A DNA stretch of 60,021 bases from Thermoanaerobaculia bacterium (GTDB lineage Bacteria; Acidobacteriota; Thermoanaerobaculia; UBA5066), in the NCBI GenBank assembly GCA_038245905.1, contig JBBRRY010000025.1, forward strand, positions 1 through 60,021, given 5' to 3'. This document shows, in pieces, positions 27,889 to 43,867 of the stretch. Below the pieces are notes generated by a model. The model was not told the DNA's origin, searched no databases, and saw only the letters and a list, made by a program, of their open reading frames with translations. A program made the translations under genes and the position numbers. Each line of letters begins with the position of its first letter. The stretch's first letter is position 1.

Positions 27889-29391
27889 CTACGGCTGCAC
27901 GCCGGGAAGGTGGAACGGACCGTAGGTAGCGAGGACGAGGATGGCCGCGCCGACGACCGCGGTCAGGTAGGTGGCGCGATCCTTCGTGGCGAAGAGGACG
28001 GGGTCTTCGTCCATCTCGCCCCGGTTGACGAGGACCCAGATCCGGCTGATCCAGTAAAGGAAGACCGGCACGATCAGCCACAGCCACGCCGGGCTCGCAT
28101 AGAGACGCCTCACCGTGTCGCTCTGGAGGTAGAGCGCAAGGACGATCGCGGCCAGATAACCGCTCGTGATGCCGCAGGACTGCACGGTGAGGTGATCCCA
28201 CGTGAAATATGCCCGGCCCTGAGCCTCGATCATCTCGGATTTCTTGAGCCGTACCAGCTCGGAGGCCCGCTTGCAGAACGCGAGGCTCAGGAACGTGAAG
28301 ACCGAAAATGCGAGAAACCACGGCGAGAGGAGGAGACCCGTCGCGGCGCCGCCGAGGAGAACGCGGAGGGTGTAAAGAAGCGACAGCGTGAAGACGTCAA
28401 CGAGCACGAGCCGCTTCAGGAAAAGGGAATACGCCGTCGTCACGACGAGGTAGACGCCGATGAGCTTCAAGGCATCCACCGGGAGCCTCAGCGAGATCGC
28501 GATGCCCGACCCCATCAGGAGAAGGGACAGGACGATCGCCAGGGGAATTGCCAGGCTTCCGCTCGCGAGAGGCCGGCGCCACTTTTCGGGATGCCGGCGA
28601 TCGGAATCCAGATCTAAGAGATCGTTGAGAAGGTAAATGCTCGACGCACAAAACGAGATCGCCACGAACGCCAGGGCGCCCGCGGAGAGGATCCCGGCGT
28701 CTTGCAGCTTGTGCGCCGTGATGATCGGAATGAAGACGAGGAGGTTCTTGACCCACTGGCGCGCACGCATGGCCGCGACGATCGTCTTCAGTCTAAAGGG
28801 AGGCCGCGGGAAGAGCTCGGCGAGATTTCCGTCCCGGCGAAGGCCCGTCTCGACGGCGTGCGACGCATTCACCGCGATCGCCCGGCGCGCCTTCTTCCAG
28901 ACGGGCCTGTCCACCTCTCCGTTTCCGGCGTAGTCGAATCCCCGGTCTCCAAACCGCTCCACGAGTACCCGCGCTTTGGCCTCGCCGCCGAGGTTCGTCG
29001 TGCCGTCGCTCCCCACGACCTCGTCGAAGATCTCGAGGTGCTGGGCGACGCTCTCCGCCCAGATACGGTCGGACGCGGTCGCGAGGACGAGGCGCCGCCC
29101 TTGGTCCTTCTCCTTCCGAAGAAATTGCAGGAGACGAAGGTCATAGGGAAGCGTCGACGGTTCGAGTGCGACTCTCTTCGCGAGCTCCCTCTTGAAGCCC
29201 GCCTTGCCCTTCGAAAGCCAGAACGGAGCCATGAAGAGCGGCCCCGGTCCCGCCTTCGCGAGCCGCGCGAGACCCTCGAAGAGGAGATCGCTTCGGACCA
29301 GCGTCCCGTCGAGATCGACACAGAGAGGAACCTCGGCACCCGCGGTGTCCGCTGTCCCCGGGTCTTCTTTCGCGCCAATCAAGAAAAACAT
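27889..29391 (-). CDS. UbiA-family prenyl/phosphoribosyltransferase with an N-terminal HAD-like domain
   Basis: VDLDGTL, QWVKN, NDLLD..DRRHP.K..RP, DEDPVLFA. The start may be TTG at 29382. Confidence 0.9.
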   Translation of the reverse strand: MFFLIGAKEDPGTADTAGAEVPLCVDLDGTLVRSDLLFEGLARLAKAGPGPLFMAPFWLSKGKAGFKRELAKRVALEPSTLPYDLRLLQFLRKEKDQGRRLVLATASDRIWAESVAQHLEIFDEVVGSDGTTNLGGEAKARVLVERFGDRGFDYAGNGEVDRPVWKKARRAIAVNASHAVETGLRRDGNLAELFPRPPFRLKTIVAAMRARQWVKNLLVFIPIITAHKLQDAGILSAGALAFVAISFCASSIYLLNDLLDLDSDRRHPEKWRRPLASGSLAIPLAIVLSLLLMGSGIAISLRLPVDALKLIGVYLVVTTAYSLFLKRLVLVDVFTLSLLYTLRVLLGGAATGLLLSPWFLAFSVFTFLSLAFCKRASELVRLKKSEMIEAQGRAYFTWDHLTVQSCGITSGYLAAIVLALYLQSDTVRRLYASPAWLWLIVPVFLYWISRIWVLVNRGEMDEDPVLFATKDRATYLTAVVGAAILVLATYGPFHLPGVQP

Positions 29392-29440
29392 TCTATGCCC
29401 CGGGCGCCAGGACGACTCCTCCGGCGCTAGACTTCGCGCT

Positions 29441-32103
29441 CTGGCTATCGCGACGGGAACTCGACTCGGGCCTTACGAGGTCCTCTCCCTGCTAGGCGCG
29501 GGCGGGATGGGAGAGGTCTACCGGGCGAAGGACTCGCGCGTCGACTGAGTGGTTGCACTGAAGGTACTGCCCGAGGATTTCTTAGAAGGTGAAGAGAGAA
29601 GAGAGCGCTTTGCGCGCGAGGCGAAGCTGCTCGCGAGCCTGAATCATCCGGGGATCGCCACCCTCTATTCATTCGAAGAAATCCCCTCTTCGTCTTCCTC
29701 CTCGACCCGCCACATCCTCGTCATGGAGCTGCTCGAGGGCGAGACTCTCAGGCAGGCGATCGCGGCGGGCAAGCTGCCGCTCCGGCGCGCCATCGACTGG
29801 GCGATCCAGATCGCGCACGGCCTCGCGGCCACGCACGAGAAGGGCGTCGTCCACCGGGACCTCAAGCCCGAGAACCTGTTCGTCACGAAGGACGGCCGGA
29901 TCAAGATTCTCGACTTCGGTCTCGCGAAGCTGGCAGAAAAAGGCGGCGGAGACTCCGGCTCGAATCTGCAGACCGCGGCCCGCGGCACGGAGCCCGGCGT
30001 CTCCTCGGCACGATGGGCTACATGTCTCCCGAGCAAGTCCGCGGGAGGTCCGCCGATGCGCGGAGCGACCTCTTCGCGTTCGGCGCCATCCTCTACGAGA
30101 TGCTCTCGGGAAAGAAGGCATTCGCGGGCGATTCGGGTGCCGACGTCATCATGTCGATCCTCCGGGAGGAACCGGCCGACCTCTCGCTCACGAACCAGAG
30201 CGTCCCGCCGGGACTCGAGCGCATCGTCCGGCGCTGCCTCGAGAAGAGCCCGGAGCAGCGCTTCCAGTCGGCGGGCGACCTCGCGTTCGCGCTCGAGAGC
30301 CTGTCGTCGGACTCCGCGGCCGCGCGCGCGGTCGCGCACGGCGTCGCGCCGTCGCGCCTCGTGAAACGGCGCGCGCTTTTCTTCGGTGTCTCTTCCGCGC
30401 TCCTCGTCGCGGGCTTCCTCGCAGGCCGGGCGGTCCGGACGACGTCCCCCGTGCCGTCGCTCCTGTTCGAACGCGTGTCTTCCGAGCCGGGAATCGAGCG
30501 GTCGCCCGCCCTCTCGCCCGACGGCGAGAGCGTCGCCTACGTGAAGGCGGTCGGCGGGAAGCGGCACATCTTCGTCCAGCGCGTCGGGAGCGACAAGCCC
30601 ATCGACCTCTCGGCCGACTCGCCCGACGAGGATCGCTTCGACCCCGCCTTTTCTGCCGACGGCTCGCTCATCGCGTTCCAGTCGGGCGGCGAAGGGGGCG
30701 GCATCTTCCTCATGGGCCCCCTCGGCGAATCGGTCCGGCGGCTGACCGACGAGGGCTACGGCCCGGCGTTCACGCCGGACGGCCGCGAGATCGTCTACTC
30801 GGAGGAGGCCGCCCTCTCGCCCCTCGCGCGAGGCAAGCGCGCACGCATCTGGGCCGCCGAGGTCGCGACCGGAAAGAAGCGGATGCTCTTCGGACCAGAC
30901 GCGATCGAGCCCGCGGTCTCGCCGCACGGCAAGCGGGTCGCGTTCTGGGGACTCGTCGGCGACACGGCGCAGCGGGACATCTGGACCATTCCCCTGGCGG
31001 GGCTCAAGGAAGGCGAGAAGCCCGTCCCCGTGACGAACGACGCCGCGGTGGACTTCAGCCCGTTCTGGTCCGCCGACGAGACACTTCTCTACTTCGGCAG
31101 CGACCGCGGTGGAAGCTTCAACCTCTGGCGGGTCCCCATCGACGAGGCTTCGGGAGTCCCGCACGGCGCGCCGGAGCCGGTCACGCTGCCCGTCACGTGG
31201 GCCGGGACGTTCCCGGGCTCCTTTCGGGGGTCGCGGAACGGCCGGCGGATCGCCTTCACCGCGCCCGCCGAGCTCATCACGTTCGAAAGGCTCGCGCTCG
31301 AGCCCGGCACGCTCAATCCGGTCGGTCCGCCCGTCGTCCTCAGGCGCAGCTCCACCGCGTTCGAGGACATCCAGATCTCTCCGGACGGCACGACGCTCGC
31401 GATCCGCACGGCCGGACGCATCGAGGAGCTCTGCCTCGCCACGTCCGACGGGCAGAGGGTCCGCCGCCTCACTCACGACGAGTTTCGCAACCGCGCCCCC
31501 GTCTTCACGGCGGATGGCAAGCGCCTCGTCTTCTACTCGAACCGGGAAGGCGACTATGGCGCGTATTCGGTCGCGACGGACGGCAGCGGCCTCGCGCGGC
31601 TCACGCCCAAGGGCTCGCCGTTCTACCTCTACCCCGCGATCTCCCCGGACGGGCGCTTCCTCGCGGCGTCTTCGTTCGACGCGCGCGTGGCTGTGTTTCC
31701 GCTCGTCGCGGGGGCCGGGGGCGCGCTGTCGGTCGGCTCGCCCATCTCCGAATTCACGTCCCGCTGGCCGTGGAGCTGGTCTCCCGACGGTACGCGCCTG
31801 CTGGCCGCGGGGCGCGGGGGCGATTTCCCAATCGAGGTCTTCCTCTGCACTCCCGCGACGAAATCCTGCGAGCCCCTCGGCGTCCGCGCGTACGTCGCGC
31901 AGTTCGCGCCGGACGGCAAGCGGGCCATCGTGTCGACGCCGGACGGCATCCGCGTCCTCGACCTCGTCACCCGCCAGTCGCGACTGATTCACCCGGCGCC
32001 CGAGGGCACGTTGTTCCGGATCGCGCTCTCCCGCGACGGGCGAAACCTCTACTTCCTCAGAAACGTCACCGAGAGCGACATCTGGGTGGGCACGTTCAAG
32101 TAA
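29441..32103 (+). pseudogene. Ser/Thr kinase + TM + PD40/TolB-like beta-propeller, disrupted
   Basis: AIATGTRLGPYEV..GAGGMGEVY; in-frame TGA at 29546-29548; one-base loss near 30001 before LGTMGYMSPE; CTG at the start position. Confidence 0.85.
29576..29596 (+). repeat. Dispersed intragenic motif, copy 1
   Basis: GATTTCTTAGAAGGTGAAGAG. Confidence 0.7.
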
Positions 32104-32132
32104 ATATCGCCGCCGGAACGAAACTCGGCCCG
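32104..32132 (+). pseudogene. N-terminal stub of a second tandem kinase gene
   Basis: IAAGTKLGP immediately after the stop, matching the family's N-terminus. Confidence 0.5.
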
Positions 32133-32163
32133 ATCCCGCCGGACGACCGCGAAAAAGGTCCCT

Positions 32164-34248
32164 CTAGCTGCTCTTCCGGAGCACGAACAACGCAACCAGA
32201 GCGAGCACCAACCCCAGGAACGCGAGGACGTTCGGTGCGAGCGTCGGAACGGCCGCCACCCCACCGGCAGGTACCGGCGTCGGAGTCAATGTCGGCGTCG
32301 GGGTGGGCCCCACCGGAGTCGAGGTGGGAGTCGCGGTCACGGTCGCCGTCGGCGTCACCGTGGGAGTCGGCGTGGGCCCCGGTCCCGCGAGGCACTGCGA
32401 GAACTCGGAGGTGCTTCCCGCGGGATCCGTCGCCGTCGACGTGATGACCGTCTCGCCGGCGGGGACAGGCAGGGTCACGTTGAAGCTCCCGTTGCACGTC
32501 CCGTCCGTCACGACGGTCGCCGAGCCGAGATACGTCCGCCCCGGTCCGTAATTGAAGGAGCCGCCGCTGCACGCCGGGCTCGAATAGAAGTCGACCTGAA
32601 AGGAGGTCGACGCCGTCGAGTTCAGCGTGCCGGCGATCGTGACGTTTCCGCCCCCGAAGACCGTGCTCGTGACGACCGGGAAGTTCTGGAACCCGTTCGG
32701 GCCGGTATCCGCGTCGCACGCGTCGTTGAAGACGGGCTCCGTGGTCGAGGAGAGGCTGATCCCGAAGCCGAACAGTGCGGAGAGCGCGATCGAGTTGCCG
32801 CGGATCGTGGTCCTGTTCGAGGCGCCGCGGACAGCCACGCCCGTTCCGGACGACCCCATCATGATCCGGTTCCCCGCCCCCGGGGCGATTCCGCCGACCG
32901 TCGAGGTCGTCGCGGTGGTCGGCGAGAAGACGAGGATCTCCCCGTTGCCGTCCGGCAGGGGCGTCACGCCGTCCACCTGGGTCCCGACGTAGTTGCCCTG
33001 AATCGTTACGTTTGCATCGGAGGAAGTGATGCCGCTCGACAGGTTGCCGGCGATCACGTTCCGCGCCGCCGCGGTCGTCCCGCCGATCAGGGACGTGCCC
33101 CCGTTCTGGATCGTGATTCCGTCGCCGTTCCCGCGCGCGAGCGTTCCAGTCACGTCCGTCCCGATCAGGTTCCCCTGGACGGTCGACGAGGTTGCCCCGT
33201 TGAGGCGGATGCCGCTGCCCGAGACGCTCCCGGCGATCACGTTCCTCGCTCCCGGCGTAGTCCCGCCGATGAGAACGGCGCCGAGCGTGGCCGCCGGATT
33301 CCGGATGACCGCGATCGCGTCGCCCCCGTTGCCGATCGCCGTCGTCCCGGTCACGTCGAGGCCGATCGTGTTTCCCTGGATCGTCACGGCTCCAATCGTT
33401 CCGTTGCCTCCCCCGTTCTGGATGAAGATGCCGTATAGCGTGTTTCCCGAGATCAGGTTCCCGGATCCGGCGGCCGTCCCGCCGATCGTGACGGTTCCGA
33501 GTACATCGCCCGTGCCCGCGATGGCGACCACGCCATAGGCCGAAAGGATGGCTGCGGTGCCGGAGGCGTTCGTCCCGAGATAGTTGCCCTGGATGACCGC
33601 GCTCGGGATGCTGGGCGAGAAGCCCGAGAGACTCTGGACGTTGATGGCCGCTGTGTTGCCGGCGATGACGTTGCGCTGCGCCGGAGTCGTTCCGCCCACG
33701 AGGACGTTTGCCGCGCCGGCATAGACCCCGTAATTCGAGCCTCCGCCCAATGCCGTTCCCCCGGCGTTCGTGCCGAGGAAATTTCCCTGGATCGTCGTGT
33801 TGTCGGCGAAAACCAGAATCAGCGCGAGGCCGTTCGAGCCCCGCATCGCGAGCCCCCGGACGACCGAGTTCGGCGCGGTCGAGTTGATCTGGAACGCAAA
33901 AAAGCCGTTGACGTTGATCTCCACCTGAAGGACGGCGTCGTCTCCGACGGCAAGGGTGTTCGCGCTGGAGCCCGGCTGCGTGTAGCCGTCGATCGTGACG
34001 CTGTCGGTCACGGTGGGAAAGTGGGACGCGAGTGTGATCGTGTGGAGTCCCGCACCAGGGATCGCAAACACGATCGTGTCGGCGCCGGCCGCGGTGTTCG
34101 CGTCGGTGATCGCCTGTCGCAGCGATCCAGCGCCGGTGTCGCTCGTGTTCGTGACGGTGAATGTCGCCGCCGCCACGGGACGGCCCGCAAGAAGGACGGC
34201 GGACGCTCCGAACGCGCCCAGCCGCGCGAGATTTCTGAGGAAATACAT
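32164..34248 (-). CDS. Secreted right-handed beta-helix protein with PT linker and IPTL-CTERM-like sorting signal
   Basis: FTVTNTSDTGAGSLRQAI; repeats GGT....N.I.GN and IQGN.(I/L/V)G; TSEFS; (PT)n; VPTL-TM-RK. Confidence 0.85.
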   Translation of the reverse strand: MYFLRNLARLGAFGASAVLLAGRPVAAATFTVTNTSDTGAGSLRQAITDANTAAGADTIVFAIPGAGLHTITLASHFPTVTDSVTIDGYTQPGSSANTLAVGDDAVLQVEINVNGFFAFQINSTAPNSVVRGLAMRGSNGLALILVFADNTTIQGNFLGTNAGGTALGGGSNYGVYAGAANVLVGGTTPAQRNVIAGNTAAINVQSLSGFSPSIPSAVIQGNYLGTNASGTAAILSAYGVVAIAGTGDVLGTVTIGGTAAGSGNLISGNTLYGIFIQNGGGNGTIGAVTIQGNTIGLDVTGTTAIGNGGDAIAVIRNPAATLGAVLIGGTTPGARNVIAGSVSGSGIRLNGATSSTVQGNLIGTDVTGTLARGNGDGITIQNGGTSLIGGTTAAARNVIAGNLSSGITSSDANVTIQGNYVGTQVDGVTPLPDGNGEILVFSPTTATTSTVGGIAPGAGNRIMMGSSGTGVAVRGASNRTTIRGNSIALSALFGFGISLSSTTEPVFNDACDADTGPNGFQNFPVVTSTVFGGGNVTIAGTLNSTASTSFQVDFYSSPACSGGSFNYGPGRTYLGSATVVTDGTCNGSFNVTLPVPAGETVITSTATDPAGSTSEFSQCLAGPGPTPTPTVTPTATVTATPTSTPVGPTPTPTLTPTPVPAGGVAAVPTLAPNVLAFLGLVLALVALFVLRKSS

Positions 34249-34442
34249 ACGAACTCCCTGTTCGAAACGACTCGGTGGTCAAAAATGAGCTTCTAATTGC
34301 TGCGCAGAGAGACAGCGGTCATATCACCGATCACGCGGTGACAGGTGATTTTTTCCACGAAGATCTCGCCGCCCTCTAGTCCGTCGGCGTGCCCGTGAAC
34401 TACCACCGCCCAGCGCGACGGGATCTCTGAGGCGCGCCGGGA

Positions 34443-35969
34443 CTACTCGGCTTCCAGATATGCCGCGAGCCCGTGGCGGCCGCCTTCGCGACCGAAGCCG
34501 GACTCCTTGTAGCCGCCGAACGGCGACGTCGGGTCGAACTTGTTGTACGTGTTCGCCCAGACGACGCCCGCGCGGAGCTTCTGCGAGATCTTGAAGATCT
34601 TGGAGCCCTTGTCCGTCCAGACGCCGGCCGAGAGGCCGTACATCGTGTTGTTCGCCTTCTCGACGGCCTCGTCCGGCGTGCGGAAGGTCTGGACGGCGAG
34701 GACCGGGCCGAAGATCTCCTCGTTCGCGATGCGGAAGCTCTGCGCGACGTTCGTGAAGAAGCTCGGCGGGAACCAGTAGCCCCGCGAAGGCAGCGTGCAG
34801 CCCGACTGCGTCAACACCGCCCCTTCGTCGATGCCCGACTGGACGAGCTCCCGGATCTTCTCGAGCTGCATCTTCGAGTTGATCGCGCCGACGTCCGTGT
34901 TCTTGTCCAGCGGGTCGCCGAGGCGGAGCGTCCGGATGCGCATGGCGAGCTTCCGGACGAGGACGTCGTGGACCGACTCCTCGACGAGAAGGCGTGAGCC
35001 CGCGCAGCAGACGTGGCCCTGGTTGAAGTAGATCCCGTTGATGATTCCCTCGACAGCCTGGTCGAGCGGCGCGTCCGCGAAGACGATGTTCGCGGCCTTG
35101 CCGCCCAGCTCGAGCGTGAGCCGCTTGCCTGTACCCGCGGCAGCCTTCTGGATCCGCTTGCCGACCTCGGTCGAGCCCGTGAACGCGACCTTGCGGACCT
35201 TCGGGTGCGTCACGAGCGCCGCGCCCGTCGCGCCCGCGCCCGTGATGACGTTCACGACGCCGGGCGGGAAGTCCGCCTCCTCGAAGAGGCGCGCGAGGTG
35301 CAGCGCCGTGAGCGGCGTCGTCTCGGCGGGCTTGAGGACGCTCGTGTTCCCGCACGCGAGTGCGGGGGCGAGCTTCCACGCGGCCATCAGGAGCGGGAAG
35401 TTCCACGGGATGACCTGACCGCAGACGCCGATCGGGCGCGCCTTGCGGCCCGGGAGCGCGTAGTCGAGCTTGTCGGCCCAGCCCGCGTAGTAGAAGAAGT
35501 GCGCCGCCGCGAGCGGCACGTCGATGTCGCGCGACTCCTTGATCGGCTTGCCGCCGTCCATTGTCTCGAGGACGGCGAACTCGCGTGCCTTTTCCTGCAG
35601 CATCCGCGCGATCCGGTAGAGGTACTTGCCTCGCTCCTTGCCCGGCATCCGCCGCCAGTACTTCTCGTACGCGCGCTCGGCCGAGCGAACGGCCGCGTCG
35701 ACGTCGGCGGCGCCGGCCTCGGCGACGGAGGCGAGCGTTTCTTCCGTCGCGGGGTTGATCGTGGAAAACCGCTTGCGCGACTTCGCGGGCACCCACTTGC
35801 CACCGACAAAGAGGTCATAGGAAGGCCGGATCGTCAGGTGCGACGTCGACTCCAGCGCGGGCGCGTACTCCCACTTGCCGAGGAAATCAGGCTCCACACG
35901 CGCGAGGGCGCGTGAGGGGGTCTTCCCTCTTCCCGTTCTAAGCAAATCTCTCTTCTTCTCTTCGGCCAT
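34443..35969 (-). CDS. Aldehyde dehydrogenase (deoC-linked)
   Basis: IPWNFP, KPAE, FTGSTEVG, LELGGK, NQGHVCCAG, EEIFGP. Confidence 0.93.
   Translation of the reverse strand: MAEEKKRDLLRTGRGKTPSRALARVEPDFLGKWEYAPALESTSHLTIRPSYDLFVGGKWVPAKSRKRFSTINPATEETLASVAEAGAADVDAAVRSAERAYEKYWRRMPGKERGKYLYRIARMLQEKAREFAVLETMDGGKPIKESRDIDVPLAAAHFFYYAGWADKLDYALPGRKARPIGVCGQVIPWNFPLLMAAWKLAPALACGNTSVLKPAETTPLTALHLARLFEEADFPPGVVNVITGAGATGAALVTHPKVRKVAFTGSTEVGKRIQKAAAGTGKRLTLELGGKAANIVFADAPLDQAVEGIINGIYFNQGHVCCAGSRLLVEESVHDVLVRKLAMRIRTLRLGDPLDKNTDVGAINSKMQLEKIRELVQSGIDEGAVLTQSGCTLPSRGYWFPPSFFTNVAQSFRIANEEIFGPVLAVQTFRTPDEAVEKANNTMYGLSAGVWTDKGSKIFKISQKLRAGVVWANTYNKFDPTSPFGGYKESGFGREGGRHGLAAYLEAE
35921..35950 (-). 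repeat. Dispersed intragenic motif, variant copy
   Basis: Minus strand reads GAGATTTGCTTAGAACGGGAAGAGGGAAGA. Confidence 0.5.
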
Positions 35970-35970
35970 T

Positions 35971-36912
35971 TCAATCCTTCGTGAATTCTTCTTCCGAGCG
36001 ATACCGGCCCGTCTCTTCCTTCTTGAGCTGCATGAGGCAGTCGTTGACGAGGCTGGACGCGCCGAACCGGAAGAGGTCGGGCGTGAGCCAGTCGGCACCG
36101 AGCGTCTCCTTGACGAGGACGAGGTAGTGGAGCGCCTGCTTGCTCGTCCGGATGCCGCCCGCGGGCTTCATGCCGATCTTGACGCCCGTTGCGAGCCAGT
36201 GGTCGCGGATCGCCTCGAGCATGCAGAGCGTCACGGGAGGCGTGGCCGCGGGCATGACCTTGCCGGTCGACGTCTTGATGAAGTCCGCCCCCGCCGCGAT
36301 CGCGAGGTCGGACGCGCGGCGGACGTTGTCGTACGTCTCGAGCTCGCCCGTTTCGAGGATGACCTTGAGGTGGGCCTCACCGCAGGTTTCCTTGACCGCC
36401 GCGATCTCGTCGAAGACCTTGCGGAGGTCGCCCGAGAGGAACGCGCCGCGGTCGATCACCATGTCGATCTCGTCCGCGCCGGCCGACACCGCTCGCTTGA
36501 CGTCGGTGAGCTTCAGAGACAGCGGCGAGCGGCCGGACGGGAACGCAGTCGCGACGCTCGCGACTTTCACGGTCGAGCCCGCGAGCGCCCGCTTCGCGAT
36601 CGCGACGAGGTCCGGGTAGATACAGACGGCCGCGACGGACGGGACCGAGAGGTCGGCCGGGTCAGGCCGGACAGCCTTCGCGCACATCTGGCGGATCTTG
36701 CCGGGAGAGTCCTTGCCTTCCAGCGTCGTCAGGTCGCACATCGAGATCGCGAGACGGATGCCGGCCACCTTCGTGGCCTTCTTGATCGAGCGCTTTCCGA
36801 GCGCGGCCGAGCGCTCCTCGAGCGCGACCTGGTCGACGGTCACGCTTCGGCCGGGGAACGGAAAGACGAGCGGCAGGGGCCGCTCCGCGAGGTCTTTCAC
36901 GTCCGATTTCAC
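35971..36912 (-). CDS. deoC: Deoxyribose-phosphate aldolase
   Basis: DLTTLEG, GADEIDMV, LKVILETGEL, FIKTSTGK, KPAGGIR, RFGASSL. Confidence 0.93.
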   Translation of the reverse strand: MKSDVKDLAERPLPLVFPFPGRSVTVDQVALEERSAALGKRSIKKATKVAGIRLAISMCDLTTLEGKDSPGKIRQMCAKAVRPDPADLSVPSVAAVCIYPDLVAIAKRALAGSTVKVASVATAFPSGRSPLSLKLTDVKRAVSAGADEIDMVIDRGAFLSGDLRKVFDEIAAVKETCGEAHLKVILETGELETYDNVRRASDLAIAAGADFIKTSTGKVMPAATPPVTLCMLEAIRDHWLATGVKIGMKPAGGIRTSKQALHYLVLVKETLGADWLTPDLFRFGASSLVNDCLMQLKKEETGRYRSEEEFTKD

Positions 36913-36935
36913 GTCGCGCAGTCTACGCCCGCGCG

Positions 36936-38168
36936 TCACTCGTACCGCAGCGCCTCGGACGGGTTCATCCGCGCGGCCCGGCGCGCCGGGAGCAGCGATG
37001 CGCCGAGGACGAGCAGGAGGCCGACACCGAGGATCCCGAGCACGTGGAGCGGCTCGGGCCGGAACGGCATCCACGTGAGGTAGTAAACCTTCGCGATCTC
37101 GGGCGGAAAGCGCACGACCCGGAAAGCCGTCAGGAGAAAACACACGACGAGCCCGAAGAGCACGCCGAGGACGAGGCCGCTCCCGCCGAGCAGCATCCCC
37201 GACAGGCGAAACGTGCGGGCCACGAGGACGGGCGAGGCGCCGAGCGCCGCGAGGACGCCCACGTCCCGCGTCTTCTCGGCGAGGAGGACGACGAGAGACG
37301 ACACGACCGTGCCCGCGGCCACGGCCACGATGAGCGTCAGGACGATGAAGAGGAGCGTCTGCTGGACCTCGAGCGCCTCGAAGAGGTCGCGGTTCAGGAC
37401 CTTCCAGTCGAGCACGGTCGCGTTCTCTCCGAGAAGCTTCCGCGCCGCGGCGACGGTCTCCGCCGAGGCGGACGGCTTCACGAGCTTCATTTCCCAGACG
37501 CCCTGCCGCGCGCCCGGGGGCGCGAGCCGCTCGAAGACGGCGAGCGGAACCACCGCCCACCCGTCGTCCACCTCGGAGAAACCCGTCTCCACGACCGCCG
37601 CGACCGTCACGGGCGTGCGCGCCGCCACGGAGAGCCCCGCCGCGAGCGCCGCGGACGACGTCTCGAGGACGATCGTTCCTCCGACGGGTGCGCCGAGTCG
37701 CTTCGCGAGGCCGGCTCCCAGGAGGACGGGCGTCGCCCCTTTGGCTTCGAGCTCGCCGAACGATTTCGCGAGGCCGGGCACCGCGCCGAGGAGCCTCGTG
37801 GTCGTGAGGCCGTCGGGCAACTCGAGCGCCTTCACGAGGGCGTCGACGCCTTCGGGTGCACGCGCCGAAAGGAGGAGGGCCGGGGCGAACGCCGTGCGGG
37901 CCACCGCGGCGACATTCGGGAGCGCGCCGAGCGCCGAGCGCTGCTCCTCTACGTTCGCGCCGGGCAGGGGCATGGCGATCACTTCCGCGCTCGTCCCGGC
38001 GAGCTTCTCGGCAAGGTCGTGCCGGTATCCGGACATGAGGCCCATCGCGACGACGAGCGATGCGGCCCCGAGCGCGATGCCGAAGAGCGCGAGGAGCGAA
38101 ACGGTCTTCGGCAGCCCGCGCCGGCTGCCGAGCAGAAACCGCTTCGCCAGGAAGGCGGGGACGTTCAC
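36936..38168 (-). CDS. LolC/E-like (FtsX/MacB family) ABC permease
   Basis: GIALGAASLVVAMGLMSG, DWKVLN, EKTRDVGVLAALGA, PARRAARMNPSEALRYE. Confidence 0.85.
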   Translation of the reverse strand: MNVPAFLAKRFLLGSRRGLPKTVSLLALFGIALGAASLVVAMGLMSGYRHDLAEKLAGTSAEVIAMPLPGANVEEQRSALGALPNVAAVARTAFAPALLLSARAPEGVDALVKALELPDGLTTTRLLGAVPGLAKSFGELEAKGATPVLLGAGLAKRLGAPVGGTIVLETSSAALAAGLSVAARTPVTVAAVVETGFSEVDDGWAVVPLAVFERLAPPGARQGVWEMKLVKPSASAETVAAARKLLGENATVLDWKVLNRDLFEALEVQQTLLFIVLTLIVAVAAGTVVSSLVVLLAEKTRDVGVLAALGASPVLVARTFRLSGMLLGGSGLVLGVLFGLVVCFLLTAFRVVRFPPEIAKVYYLTWMPFRPEPLHVLGILGVGLLLVLGASLLPARRAARMNPSEALRYE

Positions 38169-38184
38169 AGCCCGAAGCTCAGCG

Positions 38185-39048
38185 TCAGTTCTTCCACTCC
38201 TCTTTCTCCACCTTCCACGCGCCATCTTCCTTCGCCATGTGGACGACGCCGCTCGAGGCGTTGCCGTCCTGCTTTCCGCTCACGGTCAGGTCCGCCGTGT
38301 CGCCCTTCTCGACGACCTTCAGGACCTTGATGTCCGTCGCCGACATCATCTTGACGAAGCCGATCATCTTCTTCGCGTCCGGCTCGTCGAGGTGCTTTGC
38401 CTGCTCCTTCGTGAAGAGCTTCTTGAGCGCCCCGAGGTCTTCCTTCTGGACGGCCTTGAGGAAATCCGCGTAGACCTTCGCCTGCGGGCTCTTCTGGGCG
38501 GCGGTCGTCTCGGCGGCCGTCGGCGGGACGACCTTCGCCGCGCGCGTGATGTCAGCCTTGAAGGAAACGTCGAAGGAGTAGGTCTCCCCGAAGAACTCGT
38601 GCTTCTTGGCGGCCTTGTAACGCCCCTCGACCGTCTTGCCGTCGAACGTCTTCTTCGTGAAGACGTCATCGCTCGACAGGCCGCTCGGACTCGCCTTCTT
38701 GAAGCCGCTGTCCCGGAATGCCGTCGAGATCGGCTTGCCGTCCGCGTCGATCGTGATCTCGAACGCGTGGAGCTTGCCCGCTTCGGCCATGTGGCTGCGC
38801 TCGAACTGGTCCTCGAGCGCCTTCCCCTCGAGCGGGACGTCGGTCAGGATGACCTCGACGTCTTCCTTCGTCTTGTCGAAGAAGCCCTTCACGGCGCGCG
38901 CGTAGGCGTGCGTCAGCTTCGTCGTCTTCCCGTTGACCGTGATGGTGCCTTCGGCCTTGCCATCAGCGGCACGGGCGCGTGGCGCCACGGCCGCGGCCAG
39001 GCCGGCGAGGACGAAAGCAGCTAGAAACACGCGAATTCCTGTCTTCAT
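38185..39048 (-). CDS. Secreted hypothetical protein with a C-terminal NTF2/DUF4878-like domain
   Basis: RBS GAGGAGG, signal peptide, C-terminal MAKEDGAWKV. Confidence 0.75.
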   Translation of the reverse strand: MKTGIRVFLAAFVLAGLAAAVAPRARAADGKAEGTITVNGKTTKLTHAYARAVKGFFDKTKEDVEVILTDVPLEGKALEDQFERSHMAEAGKLHAFEITIDADGKPISTAFRDSGFKKASPSGLSSDDVFTKKTFDGKTVEGRYKAAKKHEFFGETYSFDVSFKADITRAAKVVPPTAAETTAAQKSPQAKVYADFLKAVQKEDLGALKKLFTKEQAKHLDEPDAKKMIGFVKMMSATDIKVLKVVEKGDTADLTVSGKQDGNASSGVVHMAKEDGAWKVEKEEWKN

Positions 39049-39113
39049 GAAAGCCTCCTCATTGGATTGAGAATCTCGTTCTTCGAAAGAGACGCAGCAA
39101 GACCGTGTTCGAC

Positions 39114-40229
39114 TTAGATGCGGGAGGTCACGAGGCCGACGAAATCGTCGAACAGCGCGTCGGAGTCGTGGGGGCCGGGGGCGGACTCCGGGTGGTACTG
39201 GACCGCGAAGACAGGCTTGTCCGTGCCCCGGAAGCCCTCGCACGTGCCGTCGTTGAGGTTCACGTGCGTGAGCTCGACGTTTTTCGGCAGCGAGTCGGCC
39301 GCCACGGAGAAGCCGTGGTTCTGCGACGTGATCGCGACGTGGCCCGTCCGGAGGTTCTTGACGGGGTGATTCGCGCCGCGATGGCCGAACTTGAGCTTGT
39401 AGGTCGTGCCCCCGAGGGCGAGCCCGAGGAGCTGCTGGCCGAGGCAGATTCCGAAGACGGGTTTCCCGGATTTCACGAACGCCTTCACGTTCGCGACCGG
39501 ACCCGGCAGCGCGCCCGGGTCGCCAGGCCCGTTCGAGAGGAAGACGCCGTCAAACCCCTGCGAGAGGATCTCTGCCGCGGGAGTCGTCGCGGGAAAGACG
39601 GTCGGCTCGAGGCCGCGAACCGCGAGCATCTTCAAGATGTTCGTCTTGATCCCGTAGTCGATCGCCGCCACCCGCCCCTTCGTCGCGATTCCCGGCGGCA
39701 TCGGGAAGGTGTACGGCGTCGACGTCGACACCACGAGGGCGAGAGCGGCTCCGGCCATCGTGGGCTGTTGCTTGACCTTCTCGACGAGCGCGGTCACTTC
39801 GGCCTCGGACGCGGCTTCCGTGGAGATCGCCCCCCGCATGACGCCGCGGCTCCTGAGGTGCCGCACGAGGGCGCGCGTGTCGAACCCGTCGATTCCCACG
39901 ACGCCTCCCGCTCGAAGACCGTCTCCGATCGCCTCCTGGCCCCGCTGATTCGAGAAGCGGTGCGGAAAGTGGCGGGCGGCGAAACCCGCGACCTGAATCC
40001 GCGAGGATTCCACGTCCGTGCCATTGAGGCCGTAATTGCCGATGTGCGCGGCGGTCATCACGACGATCTGCCCGCGGTAGGACGGGTCCGTCAGCGTCTC
40101 CTGATAGCCCGACATTCCCGTGTTGAAGACGACCTCGCCGAAGGTCGTTCCGCTCGCCCCGACCGACCGACCGAGGAAACGCCGGCCGTCTTCGAGGACG
40201 AGAACGGCGAACGGACCCGCGCCGCTCAT
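39114..40229 (-). CDS. carA: Carbamoyl-phosphate synthase small subunit
   Basis: GEVVFNTGMSGYQE, SNGPGDP, GICLGQQ, SQNHG, QYHPE. Confidence 0.95.
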   Translation of the reverse strand: MSGAGPFAVLVLEDGRRFLGRSVGASGTTFGEVVFNTGMSGYQETLTDPSYRGQIVVMTAAHIGNYGLNGTDVESSRIQVAGFAARHFPHRFSNQRGQEAIGDGLRAGGVVGIDGFDTRALVRHLRSRGVMRGAISTEAASEAEVTALVEKVKQQPTMAGAALALVVSTSTPYTFPMPPGIATKGRVAAIDYGIKTNILKMLAVRGLEPTVFPATTPAAEILSQGFDGVFLSNGPGDPGALPGPVANVKAFVKSGKPVFGICLGQQLLGLALGGTTYKLKFGHRGANHPVKNLRTGHVAITSQNHGFSVAADSLPKNVELTHVNLNDGTCEGFRGTDKPVFAVQYHPESAPGPHDSDALFDDFVGLVTSRI

Positions 40230-41239
40230 ATCGTTCTCCCGACCGCCGCCGCGATGGGGCGGATCTGAGCCATCAGCTCGCCGAACATATCGGGCGTGAG
40301 CGCTTGCGGGCCGTCCGAGAGCGCTTCGGCGGGCTTGTGATGGACTTCGACCGCGATGCCGTCGGCGCCGGCGGCGATGGACGCGCGCGACATGGGCAGG
40401 ACCTTCTCGCGGCGACCGGTGCCGTGCGACGGATCGACGACGATCGGCAGGTGCGAGAGGCGCTCGACGGCGGGGACGACCGAGAGATCGAGCGTGTTGC
40501 GCGTGAAGTCGGTGAACGTGCGGATGCCGCGTTCGCAGAGAATCACGGCGGGGTTTCCTTCGGCGAGGATGTATTCGGCCGCGAGCAGGAACTCTTCCAG
40601 CGTCGCCGACATGCCCCGCTTCAAAAGAATCGGTTTCCCCGACTTCCCGGCCTTCTTCAGGAGCTCGAAGTTCTGCATGTTGCGGGCGCCGATCTGGAGG
40701 CAGTCCGCGTAATGCGCCACGATTTCGACGTGTGCCGTGTCGAGGACCTCCGTGACGACGGGAAGAGAGGTGGCCTCTCGCGCCGCCGCCAGGATCTTCA
40801 GGCCTTCCTCCCCGAGGCCCTGAAAGGCGTACGGCGAGGTGCGCGGCTTGTAGGCGCCGCCGCGCAGCAGGTCCGCGCCGCGCGCCTTCACTTCCCTCGC
40901 GATCGTGAGCGTCTGCTCGAGCGACTCGACCGCGCACGGGCCCGCGATGACGACGACATGCGTGCCGCCCACAAGGACGCCCCCGATCGAGACGATGGTG
41001 TCCTCGGGGTGAAACTCCCGCGAGACGAGCTTGTAGGGGTGCGAGACGCGGATGACCTCGAGCACGCCGGGAAGCGTCTCGAAGGCGCCGGGTCCGACCG
41101 CCCCCTTGTTCCCGGTGATGCCGACGGCCGTGCGCTGGGCACCCGGAATCGGGTGGGCCTTGAGGCCGAGGCGCTCGGCCGCCGCGACGACCCCTTCGAC
41201 ATCCGCGCTCGTGGCGCTCCTGTCCATGACGATCAGCAC
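40226..41239 (-). CDS. aroF: DAHP synthase (class I-beta, N-terminal regulatory domain)
   Basis: IAGPCAVE, KPRTSPY, IGARNMQN, CERGIRT, DPSH. Confidence 0.93.
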   Translation of the reverse strand: MLIVMDRSATSADVEGVVAAAERLGLKAHPIPGAQRTAVGITGNKGAVGPGAFETLPGVLEVIRVSHPYKLVSREFHPEDTIVSIGGVLVGGTHVVVIAGPCAVESLEQTLTIAREVKARGADLLRGGAYKPRTSPYAFQGLGEEGLKILAAAREATSLPVVTEVLDTAHVEIVAHYADCLQIGARNMQNFELLKKAGKSGKPILLKRGMSATLEEFLLAAEYILAEGNPAVILCERGIRTFTDFTRNTLDLSVVPAVERLSHLPIVVDPSHGTGRREKVLPMSRASIAAGADGIAVEVHHKPAEALSDGPQALTPDMFGELMAQIRPIAAAVGRTI

Positions 41240-41317
41240 GTTTCGTCCTGCTCTTTCCGCCGACGTTTATACTTCATTCCGCCGCGACTCCCTTGCCCGC
41301 GGCTCCCGGAGGTTCCG

Positions 41318-42109
41318 ATGTCCACAGTTCCACGCACCCGCCTCCTGCCCGCGCTCGGTCTCGCCCTCGCCGCGTTCGCGGCGCTGCCGGCGGAAGCCAC
41401 GTACGTCATCTACACGCGGGACGGCGCCCGAATCGAGGCGCGGGAGAAGCCCGCCGTCATCGGCCGGCGCCTCGTCTATCTGACGCCGCTCGGGACGTCC
41501 CAGACGATCGCGCTAGACGAGTGGGATCAGGCCCGCAGTGAAAAGGCGAATCGGGAAGGCTTCGGCGGCGCCTATGTGCTCGACGATCCGAACGGAAGCG
41601 CCAACACCTCGGCTTTACCCAACCCCGAGGCGAAGAGGCCATCCCTGTCGGATTACATCAAGAAGAACGGCCGGAAGCTGGATCCCGACCGACCCGAGCC
41701 TCGGGTCGGCGAGCTCGTGACCGAACGGGAAACCCGCGCCCCCCGCTCGTCGGCCAAAGCGGTGGAGGCGGCGCCGGTCGTCCTCGACCCGGTCGTCAGC
41801 GACGCCTTCATGCGCGCGCTCGACGGGAGCAACGTGAAGGGCGTCAAGCTCGGAAACCTGCCGTCCGCCCTGCGCGTCGCGGCCGTGACGGACAGCGAGC
41901 AGCAGGTTTTCCTCGCGCTCATGGCCTCGGCGCGCGGCCTCAAGGAGTCCCGCGCGGCGGGCAAACCGCTCGAAAAGGTGGAAGTGGTCCTCGCGACGAC
42001 CAGCGGCGAGTCGGCGGCGCGTTTCGACGTCACGCCTGACGACGCGGACGCGCTCCTCAACGGACGCATCGCTCCAGCGAAGTACTTCGTCTCACGCGTC
42101 ATCTTCTGA
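41318..42109 (+). CDS. Secreted hypothetical protein
   Basis: RBS GGAGG, signal peptide ending AEA, GC3-biased codons. Confidence 0.7.
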   Translation: MSTVPRTRLLPALGLALAAFAALPAEATYVIYTRDGARIEAREKPAVIGRRLVYLTPLGTSQTIALDEWDQARSEKANREGFGGAYVLDDPNGSANTSALPNPEAKRPSLSDYIKKNGRKLDPDRPEPRVGELVTERETRAPRSSAKAVEAAPVVLDPVVSDAFMRALDGSNVKGVKLGNLPSALRVAAVTDSEQQVFLALMASARGLKESRAAGKPLEKVEVVLATTSGESAARFDVTPDDADALLNGRIAPAKYFVSRVIF

Positions 42110-42116
42110 GGGGCCG

Positions 42117-42452
42117 ATGGACGCCGGTACTCTCGTCCTCGTTCATCTCGTCCAGCCCAAGGAGAAGTACTGGGGTGTCTTGCTCGCGCTCGGACCGGCC
42201 GGGCTGACGATGCGTGGCCTCGAGCTCGACCTCTTCGACAACTGGGCGCGGCAGCAGAGGCCGGGAGCCGAGGCGGAGCTGGGCGTCTCCACGCTCTTCG
42301 TGCCGCTGCACCGTATCGAGAAGCTCTTCGAAGACGCGCGGGTGGGCAGCGTCACGAGCTATGCCGAGCGCTTCTACGAGATCGTGGGACGTGACGCCCG
42401 CACCTTTCTCGGGCCACGTCCCCCCTCGGGCGATTCCGGCAGCCCGAACTAG
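42117..42452 (+). CDS. Hypothetical protein
   Basis: RBS GAGG; LVQPKEKYWGVL, FVPLHRIEK; operonic with the previous gene. Confidence 0.7.
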   Translation: MDAGTLVLVHLVQPKEKYWGVLLALGPAGLTMRGLELDLFDNWARQQRPGAEAELGVSTLFVPLHRIEKLFEDARVGSVTSYAERFYEIVGRDARTFLGPRPPSGDSGSPN

Positions 42453-43867
42453 CTCTTTTTCTTCCTCTCCGACAGCTCGACGAGGATGCCGCCCGTCGCG
42501 GACGGGTGGACGAACGCGACGAGGCAATCGTGCGCGCCATCGAACGGTTCCTCGTTCACGAGCCGGACGCCCGCGGCCTTGAGACGCGCGAGCGCCGCGC
42601 GCAGGTCCGTGACCTCGAGGCACAGGTGGTGGATTCCCGGACCGCGCGCGGCGATCGACTTCGCAACCGGACCGTCGGGCGACGTGGACTCGAGGAGCTC
42701 GAGGTGCGACTCCCCTACCGCGCGGAACGACGACAGGACCTTCTGAGACGCGACCTCCTCGCGGTGCTCCTCGACGAGGCCGAGGAGGTCCCAGAACGCC
42801 CCGCCTTCGGCGAGCGATTTCACGACGATACCGAGATGGGAGATTTTCAAGACAGAAGAAGAAGATTTCTTAGAAGGTAAAGAGGGAGAGGGCGGGATCG
42901 GGGCGCCGGCGGGGCCACCCGGGACGCGGCCCATCAGGGCACGGGCGGCCGAAATCGGGTCATCTTCCCGGCTTTCGACGCGCGCCGCCGCGTCTTCGAG
43001 CGCACCGCGGTCGCCGCGCAGGCTCTCTACCCTTCTAAGAAAATCTTCTCTGACCAGCCCTTCAATCCGCAGCTTCGTCCGCTCGCGCTTCCTCCGCCCG
43101 CCCTCGGGTCCGAGCAAGAATTTCCGGTGCTCCTCGAGCTTTTCGATCAGCTCGTCGAGCCCCGCGCCCGTCGTCGCGACCGTCTTCAAGACCGGGGGAA
43201 TCCACGCGCCGTGCTCGCCGAGCTCGAGCATCTGGAGGATCTCCTGCACGACGCGGTCGGCTCCGTCGCGGTCGGACTTGTTCACGACGAAGAGGTCCGC
43301 GACCTCCATGAGGCCCGCCTTGATGGCCTGGATGTCGTCGCCCATGCCCGGCGTCAGGACGACGACGCACGACTCGGCGAGGCGGAAGACTTCCACCTCG
43401 TCCTGGCCCACGCCGACGGTCTCGACGAGAACGTCGTCGTACCCCGCGGCGTCGAGCACGTCCACGGCGTCGGCCGTCGCGCGCGCAAGACCCCCGAGAT
43501 GCCCTCTCGTGGCCATCGACCGGATGAGCACTCCGGGATCCGTGTAGAGGTCCTGCATGCGAATCCGGTCGCCGAGAATCGCTCCTCCCGAGAACGGAGA
43601 TGACGGGTCCACGGCGATGATCCCGACCCTTCGCCCGGCCGCCCGGGCCCTCCGCGCGAGCGCGGCCGTGAGCGTCGACTTGCCGGCTCCCGGCGACCCG
43701 GTCAGGCCCGTCACGCGGGCGCGGCCCGTATGCGGGAAGAGCCGGGCGAGAAGGCCGGGGAAACGCGAATCGGCCGACTCCGCCCATGTGATTGCCCGCG
43801 CCACCCGCGGGATCCTACCCGCCAGAACGCCCTCGGCGAGCTCCTCGACGGCCCGGGAATCCGGCAT
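42449..43867 (-). CDS. meaB: MeaB GTPase fused to methylmalonyl-CoA epimerase
   Basis: [38 protein letters not shown]; then [30 protein letters not shown]. Confidence 0.88.
42864..42884 (+). repeat. Dispersed intragenic motif, copy 2
   Basis: GATTTCTTAGAAGGTAAAGAG, 20/21 identical to copy 1. Confidence 0.7.
43023..43048 (-). repeat. Dispersed intragenic motif, copy 3 (inverted relative to copy 2)
   Basis: Minus strand reads GAAGATTTTCTTAGAAGGGTAGAGAG. Confidence 0.65.

Follow-up and report, generated by a model that had tools for sequence, protein, structure and literature searches.

A lineage-specific DNA motif written through coding sequence in facing pairs in a Thermoanaerobaculia genome: putative paired recognition sites for a DNA-binding protein

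INTRODUCTION

A long and specific DNA word that is forced on hundreds of genes regardless of reading frame is known from very few cases, i.e., uptake sequences, the highly iterated palindrome HIP1, and Chi, and in each of these a mechanism for maintaining or exchanging the genome either followed or is still awaited. Here, we analyze such a word in the genome of a bacterium of the class Thermoanaerobaculia (Acidobacteriota), based on a stretch of 60,021 bp (GenBank contig JBBRRY010000025.1 of assembly GCA_038245905.1; hereafter, the window) and on comparisons with the remaining genome and with related genomes. The case is unusually clear: the element has a 14-bp core in an arm of 38 bp, is AT-rich, bends the codon choice of the genes that it crosses, and has one variable base that itself bends to the reading frame. 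Its arms form oriented pairs inside genes, an arrangement not known for uptake sequences, HIP1, or Chi.

Several described classes of short elements resemble this one in part. Repetitive extragenic palindromic (REP) sequences are extragenic hairpins, and bacterial interspersed mosaic elements (BIMEs) bind gyrase and IHF. Like REPs, BIMEs, and REP doublets forming hairpins (REPINs), the element consists of hundreds of short dispersed copies that often form inverted doublets of ~100 bp and are inherited vertically. Unlike in REPs and REPINs, 254 of the 433 copies are located within confident genes, the arm forms no hairpin, the spacers are unrelated, and the Y1/REP-associated tyrosine transposase (RAYT) is missing here and in 24 of 28 congeneric genomes. 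Rickettsia palindromic elements (RPEs) are whole insertions of 100 to 150 bp with a conserved consensus that are tolerated in open reading frames (ORFs) and kept at orthologous sites. With RPEs and in-frame transposable elements of the miniature inverted-repeat type (MITEs), the element shares the tolerance in ORFs and the retention of orthologous sites, but it differs from RPEs in that only the arms are conserved, and these overlie or flank native sequence in three proteins. parS, Noc, and matS sites are symmetric palindromes that are present in tens of copies. The element is likewise a putative protein-binding word that lies inside genes regardless of frame, whereas its sites are asymmetric, face each other, and number in the hundreds, and the genus has no extra ParB-family gene. 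The left half-site ATTTC appears to resemble the ParB/Noc half-site.

The DNA uptake sequences (DUS) of Neisseriaceae and the uptake signal sequences (USS) of Pasteurellaceae also share features with the element. Uptake sequences have been counted at 1,471, 765, and 1,892 copies, with 65%, 49%, and 34.5% in ORFs (PMC2817400), and a preprint places >90% of the inverted-repeat copies in transcription terminators (bioRxiv 10.1101/2025.10.24.684340). Like DUS and USS, the element has a lineage-specific core with biased flanks, occurs in hundreds of copies on both strands and in several frames at tolerated positions, has a weaker related form in a sister group, and includes some inverted pairs. Unlike DUS and USS, it is ~tenfold sparser, 70% of its copies are in facing pairs, most of these pairs are in genes and not in terminators, and ComEC does not appear to track the motif. 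HIP1 (GCGATCGC) of cyanobacteria is described as hyper-abundant, frame-independent, conserved, located in genes, and without a known function for decades (PMC5861425), and it is a perfect 8-bp palindrome tied to methyltransferases (PMC4390886, PMC13756078). The element resembles HIP1 in being an abundant frame-independent word within genes, while it differs in having an asymmetric 14-bp core within a 38-bp arm, in being paired, and in being palindromic (over 9 bp) only in one variant. Overall, the element is a variant of the USS/DUS, HIP1, and REP kind that is new in form. The motif was not reported in the literature found by a full-text search for either of two 12-mers or for the class together with repeat motif, as judged from titles and the beginnings of abstracts and with supplements outside the search. 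For an uncultured class of Acidobacteriota without genetics, a bait sequence, a phyletic pattern, and ~200 mapped loci provide a handle that could be used to find a putative DNA-reading system.

RESULTS

The element is an asymmetric arm that is strongly enriched in the genome

The assembly to which the window belongs (as contig C25) comprises 3.80 Mb in 113 contigs and has 67.8% GC and 96% completeness. Genome-wide, the element is an asymmetric arm of ~38 bp that consists of a purine tract, the core GATTTCTT[A/T/C]GAA[G/A/T]G, and then (T/G)GAAGAGGG, with the 14-mer GATTTCTTAGAAGG at its core; the motif is AT-rich in a genome of ~68% GC. In a profile of 253 aligned copies, purines extend from approximately −15 to −1 and are followed by the core G-A-T-T-T-C-T-T-[A 51%, T 27%, C 21%]-G-A-A-[G 72%]-G and by (T/G)GAAGAGGG to +22. 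In this profile, we detected no conservation past +22 or ahead of −15, and the spacers between copies share no sequence. An initial annotation of the window, made from its sequence only, had described the core as palindromic. This holds only for the A-variant TTCTTAGAA, which is a 9-bp palindrome, but the genome-wide profile is asymmetric, and palindromy was therefore overstated.

The exact 14-mer occurs 35 times in the genome (16 forward and 19 reverse), while ~0.001 occurrences are expected from base composition; with ≤1, ≤2, and ≤3 mismatches, the counts are 98, 253, and 524, respectively. Profile searches returned 433 matches at E ≤ 10 and 296 at E ≤ 1, compared to 12 and 3 in the reversed genome, and the density is ~1 copy per 9 kb. 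The 2289 called coding sequences contain 11 exact and 145 near copies (≤2 mismatches). Ten within-gene shuffles of synonymous codons gave 0 exact and 15 to 24 near copies, so that comparison with a codon-shuffled background, which had been proposed together with the initial annotation, revealed strong enrichment. Within the window, there are 4 matches to GATTTCTTAGAAGG at ≤2 mismatches compared to a mean of 0.10 in 100 dinucleotide-preserving shuffles, and none of the shuffles reached 4.

The arms are arranged in facing pairs

Among the profile copies located ≤350 bp apart, we identified 100 facing pairs, in which the purine tracts point outward, 6 back-to-back pairs, and 24 tandem pairs. A set of copies obtained with a plain pattern had the same bias (86 facing, 9 back-to-back, and 29 tandem). 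At a position-weight matrix (PWM) score of >14, 302 of the 433 copies (~70%) have a facing partner, and the 232 nominal singles have a degenerate partner on their inner side in 95 to 107 cases and on their outer side in 8 to 10 cases. The cores of a pair are 20 to 300 bp apart, the modal distance is 60 to 130 bp, and the modal unit size is ~100 to 150 bp. The initial annotation had correctly listed four strong copies in the window, but this facing-pair architecture, which is the defining feature of the element, had been overlooked.

In each of the five regions tested, the identity between the arms of a pair is the same as between shuffled partners (z of −1.0 to 0.6), and the center base of the core is the same in both arms in 39% of the pairs, with 35% expected. 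Among the 74 in-gene pairs, for which the direction of transcription is known, G·U-compatible differences numbered 288 compared to 266 for the mirror class. Since two arms of a pair are no likelier to be alike than arms of different pairs, each arm is held to the consensus singly and not to its partner. The absence of co-variation between arms and of a G·U asymmetry leaves a hairpin unsupported.

The motif is laid over genes in all six reading frames

Genes were called with a self-trained codon-usage scorer, which is crude, assigns 94% of the genome to coding sequence, and probably over-calls. Based on these calls, 254 of the 433 copies map well inside confident genes, 91 are intergenic, and 88 are at gene edges or in weak calls. 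The in-gene copies use all six reading frames (sense, 62, 20, and 41; antisense, 50, 58, and 23). In two frames, an A at the core center makes TAA or TAG; there, 0 of 58 and 1 of 41 copies have this base, compared to 57 of the 91 intergenic copies. This avoidance of stops according to frame supports that the variable base represents the motif yielding to the reading frame and that the copies are really translated. The hosts include kinases, the MeaB-epimerase fusion, an aldehyde dehydrogenase (ALDH), aspartokinase, and acyl-CoA synthetase, and the motif is therefore limited neither to one frame nor to one paralog family. Together, the codon-shuffle comparison and the spread over frames and families support the proposal of the initial annotation that selection acts on a signal in the DNA itself in addition to the encoded protein. 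A site for a chromosome-organizing protein and an uptake sequence, which had been given as examples, are candidate functions of that signal.

Intergenic copies are ~threefold enriched, and copy density is 2.6- to 3.5-fold increased in the 75 nt that follow stop codons or precede start codons and is 0.5 to 0.9 of random in genes. Both arms are in one called gene in 74 of 100 pairs, and these are evenly distributed along the gene length. Two genes of this genome, encoding an LPG-synthase-type membrane protein and a GH3 hydrolase, are exactly bracketed by arms. Genes on the outer flanks of copies have no preferred direction: 81 point toward and 88 away from paired copies, the corresponding numbers for singles being 99 and 97. 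Intergenic units are found between convergent, divergent, and tandem genes alike. Some of the units between convergent genes enclose a GC hairpin or adjoin a canonical terminator. A reading of the motif as promoter or terminator was rejected because flanking gene direction is unbiased.

Two facing pairs and a single copy in the window

As initially annotated, the two strongest copies in the window, GATTTCTTAGAAGGTGAAGAG at 29576 (+) and GATTTCTTAGAAGGTAAAGAG at 42864 (+), are identical at 20 of 21 positions, and the minus-strand copies are real, with cores at 43031-43044 and 35934-35947. The latter copy (AGATTTGCTTAGAACGG, score of 29.4) was added to the 14-mer matches by a position-weight scan of the window, as was a degenerate copy at 29113 (−; score of 14.1). 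The four strong copies make two facing pairs, i.e., 29576/29670 (pair 1) and 42864/43031 (pair 2). Among the weaker variants suggested previously, those at 28618 and 39079 scored <10 and were not counted, the one at 29662 corresponds to the true arm at 29670, and the region around 29106 contains the doubtful copy at 29113. Pfam matches confirmed the previously assigned hosts, which are a Ser/Thr kinase (Pkinase and PD40), a fusion of a MeaB GTPase with an epimerase-type Glyoxalase_4 domain, and an Aldedh protein, and the four copies have differing translations as originally noted.

The left arm of pair 1 (29576..29598, +) lies in a disrupted kinase gene and consists of the core GATTTCTTAGAAGG at 29576-29589 followed by TGAAGAGAG; it reads DFLEGEE, has a PWM score of 36.4 and a profile E value of 0.00033, and was flagged as paired. 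The right arm (29661..29705, −; PWM score of 33.4) has its core at 29670-29683 (GATTTCTTCGAATG on the minus strand) and an outer TC tract that reads poly-Ser. The center of this core is C, which avoids TAA in its frame. The spacer (29590..29669, +) is native coding sequence of the kinase N-lobe without an inserted element and is spanned by the Pkinase match. The kinase gene at 29192-32103 itself appears disrupted: an Arg codon of its paralogs is replaced by an in-frame TGA at 29546-29548 (VD*VVALK compared to VDRLVALK), and a 1-base frameshift near 29990-30010 divides the Pkinase match over two frames. It is a pseudogene or the result of an assembly error, while motif pair 1 is intact.

In pair 2, the arm in the linker of the MeaB-epimerase fusion (42846..42890, +; PWM score of 42.2) comprises a GA tract, the core GATTTCTTAGAAGG at 42864-42877, and then TAAAGAGGG. 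The MeaB-epimerase gene is on the minus strand, and 11 residues are therefore translated antisense to this arm. In general, an arm read antisense gives PSKKSSSS together with its TC tract, which accounts for the odd Ser/Lys-rich linkers as previously suspected. The second arm (43022..43052, −; PWM score of 35.1) lies in the MeaB C-terminal region, has its core at 43031-43044 (ATTTTCTTAGAAGG on the minus strand), and reads EDFLRRVE. The spacer (42878..43030, −) consists of native MeaB C-terminal coding sequence and a variable linker and can be aligned to MeaB of other genera.

The single copy in the ALDH gene (35921..35965, −; PWM score of 29.4) has a GA tract on the 5' side of its core, which spans 35934-35947 (GATTTGCTTAGAAC on the minus strand), and reads EEKKRDLLRTGRG. 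It lies in an N-terminal extension ahead of the Aldedh domain, which begins at residue 59 according to Pfam, and no partner with a PWM score above 10 was found for it. The doubtful degenerate copy (29113..29126, −; AATTTCTTCGGAAGG on the minus strand) is located in a UbiA/HAD gene and has a PWM score of only 14.1.

Arms originate in place and are conserved at orthologous sites

Outgroup comparisons covered only three or four proteins. At the position of the EDFLRRVE arm of MeaB, six outgroup genomes of other genera have a sequence of equal length and of the EERFR(R/L/A) type (e.g., EERFRRAV); one of these six sequences (L142) is from an unpublished genome (G025). In aspartokinase, the arms KISLS and LLEEI both align to an archaeal aspartokinase with a gap of ≤1 residue. 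The arms in acyl-CoA synthetase flank a native spacer, one as an insertion of 12 residues and the other as a tail at the C terminus. Three paralogous kinases encoded in the same genome (contigs C11 and C24) share the pair arrangement, and the kinase spacer is the conserved N-lobe. The patterns in these four proteins support that arms arise singly, by substitution or small insertion, around resident DNA.

Among 24 congeneric species, the MeaB C-terminal arm is exact in 12 and has ≤2 mismatches in 23, as counted from the alignment, and the MeaB linker arm is exact in 10, has ≤2 mismatches in 23, and is deleted in 1, while the surrounding linker changes by insertions and deletions. In the MeaB alignment, the mean column majority is 0.94 and 0.90 for the two arm cores, 0.82 for the coding flanks, and 0.66 for the linker. 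Turning to sites with an exact 21-mer in other species, 68 of 118 gave a spanning alignment to this genome with 72 to 85% identity, a range that refers to alignable sites only. At 45 of these 68 sites, the motif is present here with ≤2 mismatches, and most of the other 23 have a degenerate copy as read by eye. Orthologous sites are therefore kept across the genus, in line with the conservation in related genomes that the initial annotation had suggested examining.

MeaB and Glyoxalase_4 share an open frame, with a single full-length match, in 21 of 24 congener loci (window 42449-43867; L118 to L147). In other genera, MeaB and the epimerase give two adjacent matches, often with a stop between them, and three congeners (G007, G012, and G018) are split as well. 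The linker of the fusion is made up of the motif arm and the TC tract.

The motif was found in one genus and, in weaker form, in its sister genus

Within the genus, every species genome (28 of 28) contains the exact core, with 9 to 94 copies each. In the sister genus (g12), 5 of 8 genomes have the exact core in 2 to 5 copies; a 400-kb sample from this genus contains 33 profile matches, mostly of the TTCTTCGAAGG variant, including facing pairs that are 79, 95, and 121 bp apart. By contrast, the exact core was found in 0 of 26 genomes of eight other genera of the family and in 0 of 16 genomes of two other families of the order (0 of 14 if the unpublished G025 and G030 are omitted). The reversed 14-mer, which served as a control, gave 0 occurrences in every genome searched. 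Matches to the 21-mer are from metagenome-assembled genomes (MAGs) of Thermoanaerobaculia or Acidobacteriota with one exception, an "Aquifex sp." MAG (L027). We rejected this MAG as a true carrier and consider the match to be due to chance, because it is a single copy in DNA of 42% GC. Viral contigs gave only single chance matches to the 14-mer.

ComEC (PF03772) is encoded in this genome but also, within the family, in all 10 genera and 57 of 63 genomes; being spread over all genera, it does not appear to track the motif. The Y1/RAYT transposase (PF01797) has 0 matches in this genome, and 4 of 28 congeners have one. Among genera, Y1 of the IS200/RAYT type has an inverse pattern, with 4 of 28 genomes in the genus with the motif compared to 7 of 8 in g12 and 17 of 17 in g18, which lacks the motif.

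DISCUSSION

We tentatively favor, as a reading that falls somewhat short of probable, that the pairs are duplex-DNA recognition sites for a putative lineage-specific protein with a chromosome-organizing or topological role. Each ~38-bp arm would be the recognition site for one subunit of this sequence-specific DNA-binding protein, and the working unit would be two facing arms ~60 to 130 bp apart (range, 20 to 300 bp), for ~150 to 200 units per chromosome. Such units would be inherited vertically, and selection would hold them in position irrespective of whether they are crossed by a gene. Inside genes, they would be accommodated either by rare synonymous codons together with residues that the protein tolerates or by small insertions into loops, linkers, or tails, and the stop-making base of the site would be altered. 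We infer that the reader is a protein and that two bound copies act together; cooperation could consist in bridging or wrapping of the spacer or in forming an outward-facing directional boundary, and its role would be organizing or topological and not transcriptional. The motif also explains the odd low-complexity linkers and tails of proteins in this genus as well as the genus-specific MeaB-epimerase fusion.

Several observations weigh against this reading. We found no candidate binding protein in a search for ParB_N, with other families of binders outside the search; ParB_N is encoded by ~two genes per genome in all 10 genera of the family, and these equal numbers argue that there is no lineage-specific ParB or Noc. 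The spacing of pairs has no helical periodicity (amplitude of 0.069 at 10.5 bp compared to ~0.062 at random), which speaks against a rigid bridging complex because such a complex is expected to show periodicity. Moreover, ~430 sites of high information are far above the numbers of known organizing sites, all gene positions depend on the crude gene caller, and the sites may be kept up by biased conversion, i.e., an uptake-type drive, instead of by site-by-site selection. A broader proposal, which we regard as possible but hold with slightly more doubt, is that the pairs represent an undescribed class of chromosome element: ~150 to 200 directional, facing pairs of protein sites per genome would be written through coding sequence as an additional layer of information, conserved site by site since before the radiation of the genus, and read by a new protein family, and they would serve as domain or topological boundaries or in two-site self-recognition for DNA exchange.

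Alternatively, the motif could be an uptake-type tag of self DNA, as for DUS, USS, and possibly HIP1, in which a surface receptor prefers tagged DNA and biased uptake with recombination builds up copies wherever the proteome tolerates them. We consider this unlikely, even though it would account for the hundreds of copies distributed over the two strands (for the exact 14-mer, 16 forward and 19 reverse), their division into 254 of 433 in confident genes and 91 intergenic with ~threefold intergenic enrichment, the frame-dependent variants, the origin in place by point changes, the weaker "dialect" in g12, and the presence of ComEC; published uptake sequences also have the same kind of coding overlay and reading-frame bias (PMC2817400). 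However, uptake by way of single sites does not predict that 70% of copies are in facing pairs 20 to 300 bp apart with an orientation bias of 100:6, nor that 74 of 100 pairs are within called genes, a density of ~1 per 9 kb is roughly tenfold below the counts in PMC2817400, and ComEC is present in 57 of 63 genomes and all 10 genera. Distinctly less probable is that the pairs are relics of MITE-, REPIN-, or RPE-like mobile elements of which the terminal inverted repeats survived while the interior decayed. The facing arrangement with the same end always outward has the look of transposon ends, the modal unit of ~100 to 150 bp is MITE-like, some in-gene units resemble in-frame low-complexity insertions (...KISLKgrkaaaargp...PSKKSssss), the acyl-CoA synthetase arm is a 12-residue insertion, and a compact intergenic unit in another species (L046) is absent here. 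Yet the spacers have no common sequence, those in MeaB, aspartokinase, and the kinases are native coding sequence in which arms replace native residues one for one, and two arms are not more similar to each other for belonging to the same pair. Moreover, we found no autonomous or full-length element in this genome, Y1/RAYT is absent here and present in 4 of 28 congeners compared to 17 of 17 genomes in g18, and the sites are orthologous across the genus; in this genome, for which these two features were analyzed, no long arm spacing is preferred and both bracketed genes are of housekeeping types.

An action at the level of RNA, in which the arms pair as a long hairpin (a terminator, an RNase III site, or a stability element) or the pyrimidine arm loads Rho, appears improbable, and marginally more so than mobile relics. 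A facing pair would provide either transcript with a 5' purine arm and then a 3' pyrimidine arm with a UC tract, some units between convergent genes hold a GC hairpin or adjoin a canonical terminator, and copies are 2.6- to 3.5-fold enriched within ≤75 nt after stops. This is countered by the lack of covariation between arms (z of −1.0 to 0.6), of a G·U excess (288 compared to 266 in 74 in-gene pairs), and of matching center bases beyond expectation (39% compared to 35%), and by the 254 of 433 copies in confident genes, evenly along the gene length; moreover, a 14-mer would not be fixed by a role in loading Rho, for which the sites are degenerate. That the pairs are invertons, i.e., inverted-repeat targets at which a master site-specific recombinase flips the spacer, also inside genes, seems very improbable to us. 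One consensus does occur at inverted sites of many loci, and the flipped spacer is stop-free in 30 of 59 in-gene units compared to 16 and 20 in two phase-shifted controls, a weak hint as these controls are imperfect. Nonetheless, we found 0 flipped spacers among 118 motif sites (117 loci) when other species were compared with this genome, the single opposite-strand match being due to arms matching each other; in 24 species, conserved native protein is encoded by the spacers in a single orientation; and the flip phase is even (22, 15, and 22), for which the control is imperfect since arms carry frame-specific stops. Finally, paralogy, a favored peptide, codon bias, or chance might produce such repeats as a by-product, and the kinase paralogs do hold their pair by descent. 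The probability of this is close to nil, as it is refuted by the use of six frames, the unrelated hosts, the 91 intergenic copies, the 145 near copies compared to 15 to 24 after shuffling, the zero counts in reversed controls, and the stop-avoiding variants.

Additional features near the arms

We considered whether the arms could mark insertions of a TA-targeting MITE with TA in a 16-bp palindrome; the corresponding empty site had 0 copies, with 1 mismatch included, which speaks against this candidate on the one model that was tried, with duplications in general outside the search. The pyrimidine arm (TCACCT-TCTAAG-AAATC) resembles the 3' end of a congener 16S rRNA gene together with the start of the adjoining spacer (TCACCT-CCTT-TCTAAG-GGATC; L154, 3040-3070), with 16 of 20 aligned positions matching and a 4-base gap. 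This likeness may be a coincidence or may reflect the Shine-Dalgarno-like AGGTGA in the purine arm. This assembly contains no 16S gene. A modified anti-Shine-Dalgarno sequence was rejected, as gene starts carry canonical GGAGG or AAGGAG and a congener has the normal GGATCACCTCCTTTCT at the 3' end of its 16S rRNA.

A motif copy lies ~90 bp past the stop codon of one of the two ParB_N genes (C1:217137-218009), in an AT-rich intergenic stretch (region C1:215602-220612). A compact pair lies 2.5 kb beyond this copy between convergent genes, and this is possibly an origin-proximal region. The GA/TC tracts beside arms are microsatellite-like in that their length and sequence vary among species (MeaB linker alignment, L118 to L143). 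Arms are at times duplicated in tandem: the MeaB linker contains a second arm in L133, L139, L140, and L143, and in the genome there are also copies 24 to 42 bp apart.

Another short motif, TTTTGCTTCGGA, which is frequently accompanied by GGATT(T)C repeats in tandem, is located 15 to 60 nt outside a minority of arms (e.g., at C2:206300, C7:2300, and C19:63330). On the opposite strand, this second motif is sometimes immediately 5' of an ATG. TTTTGCT occurs in 16 of 432 outer flanks of arms, which corresponds to a 48-fold enrichment, and 12 of the 53 genomic copies of TGCTTCGGA are in these flanks.

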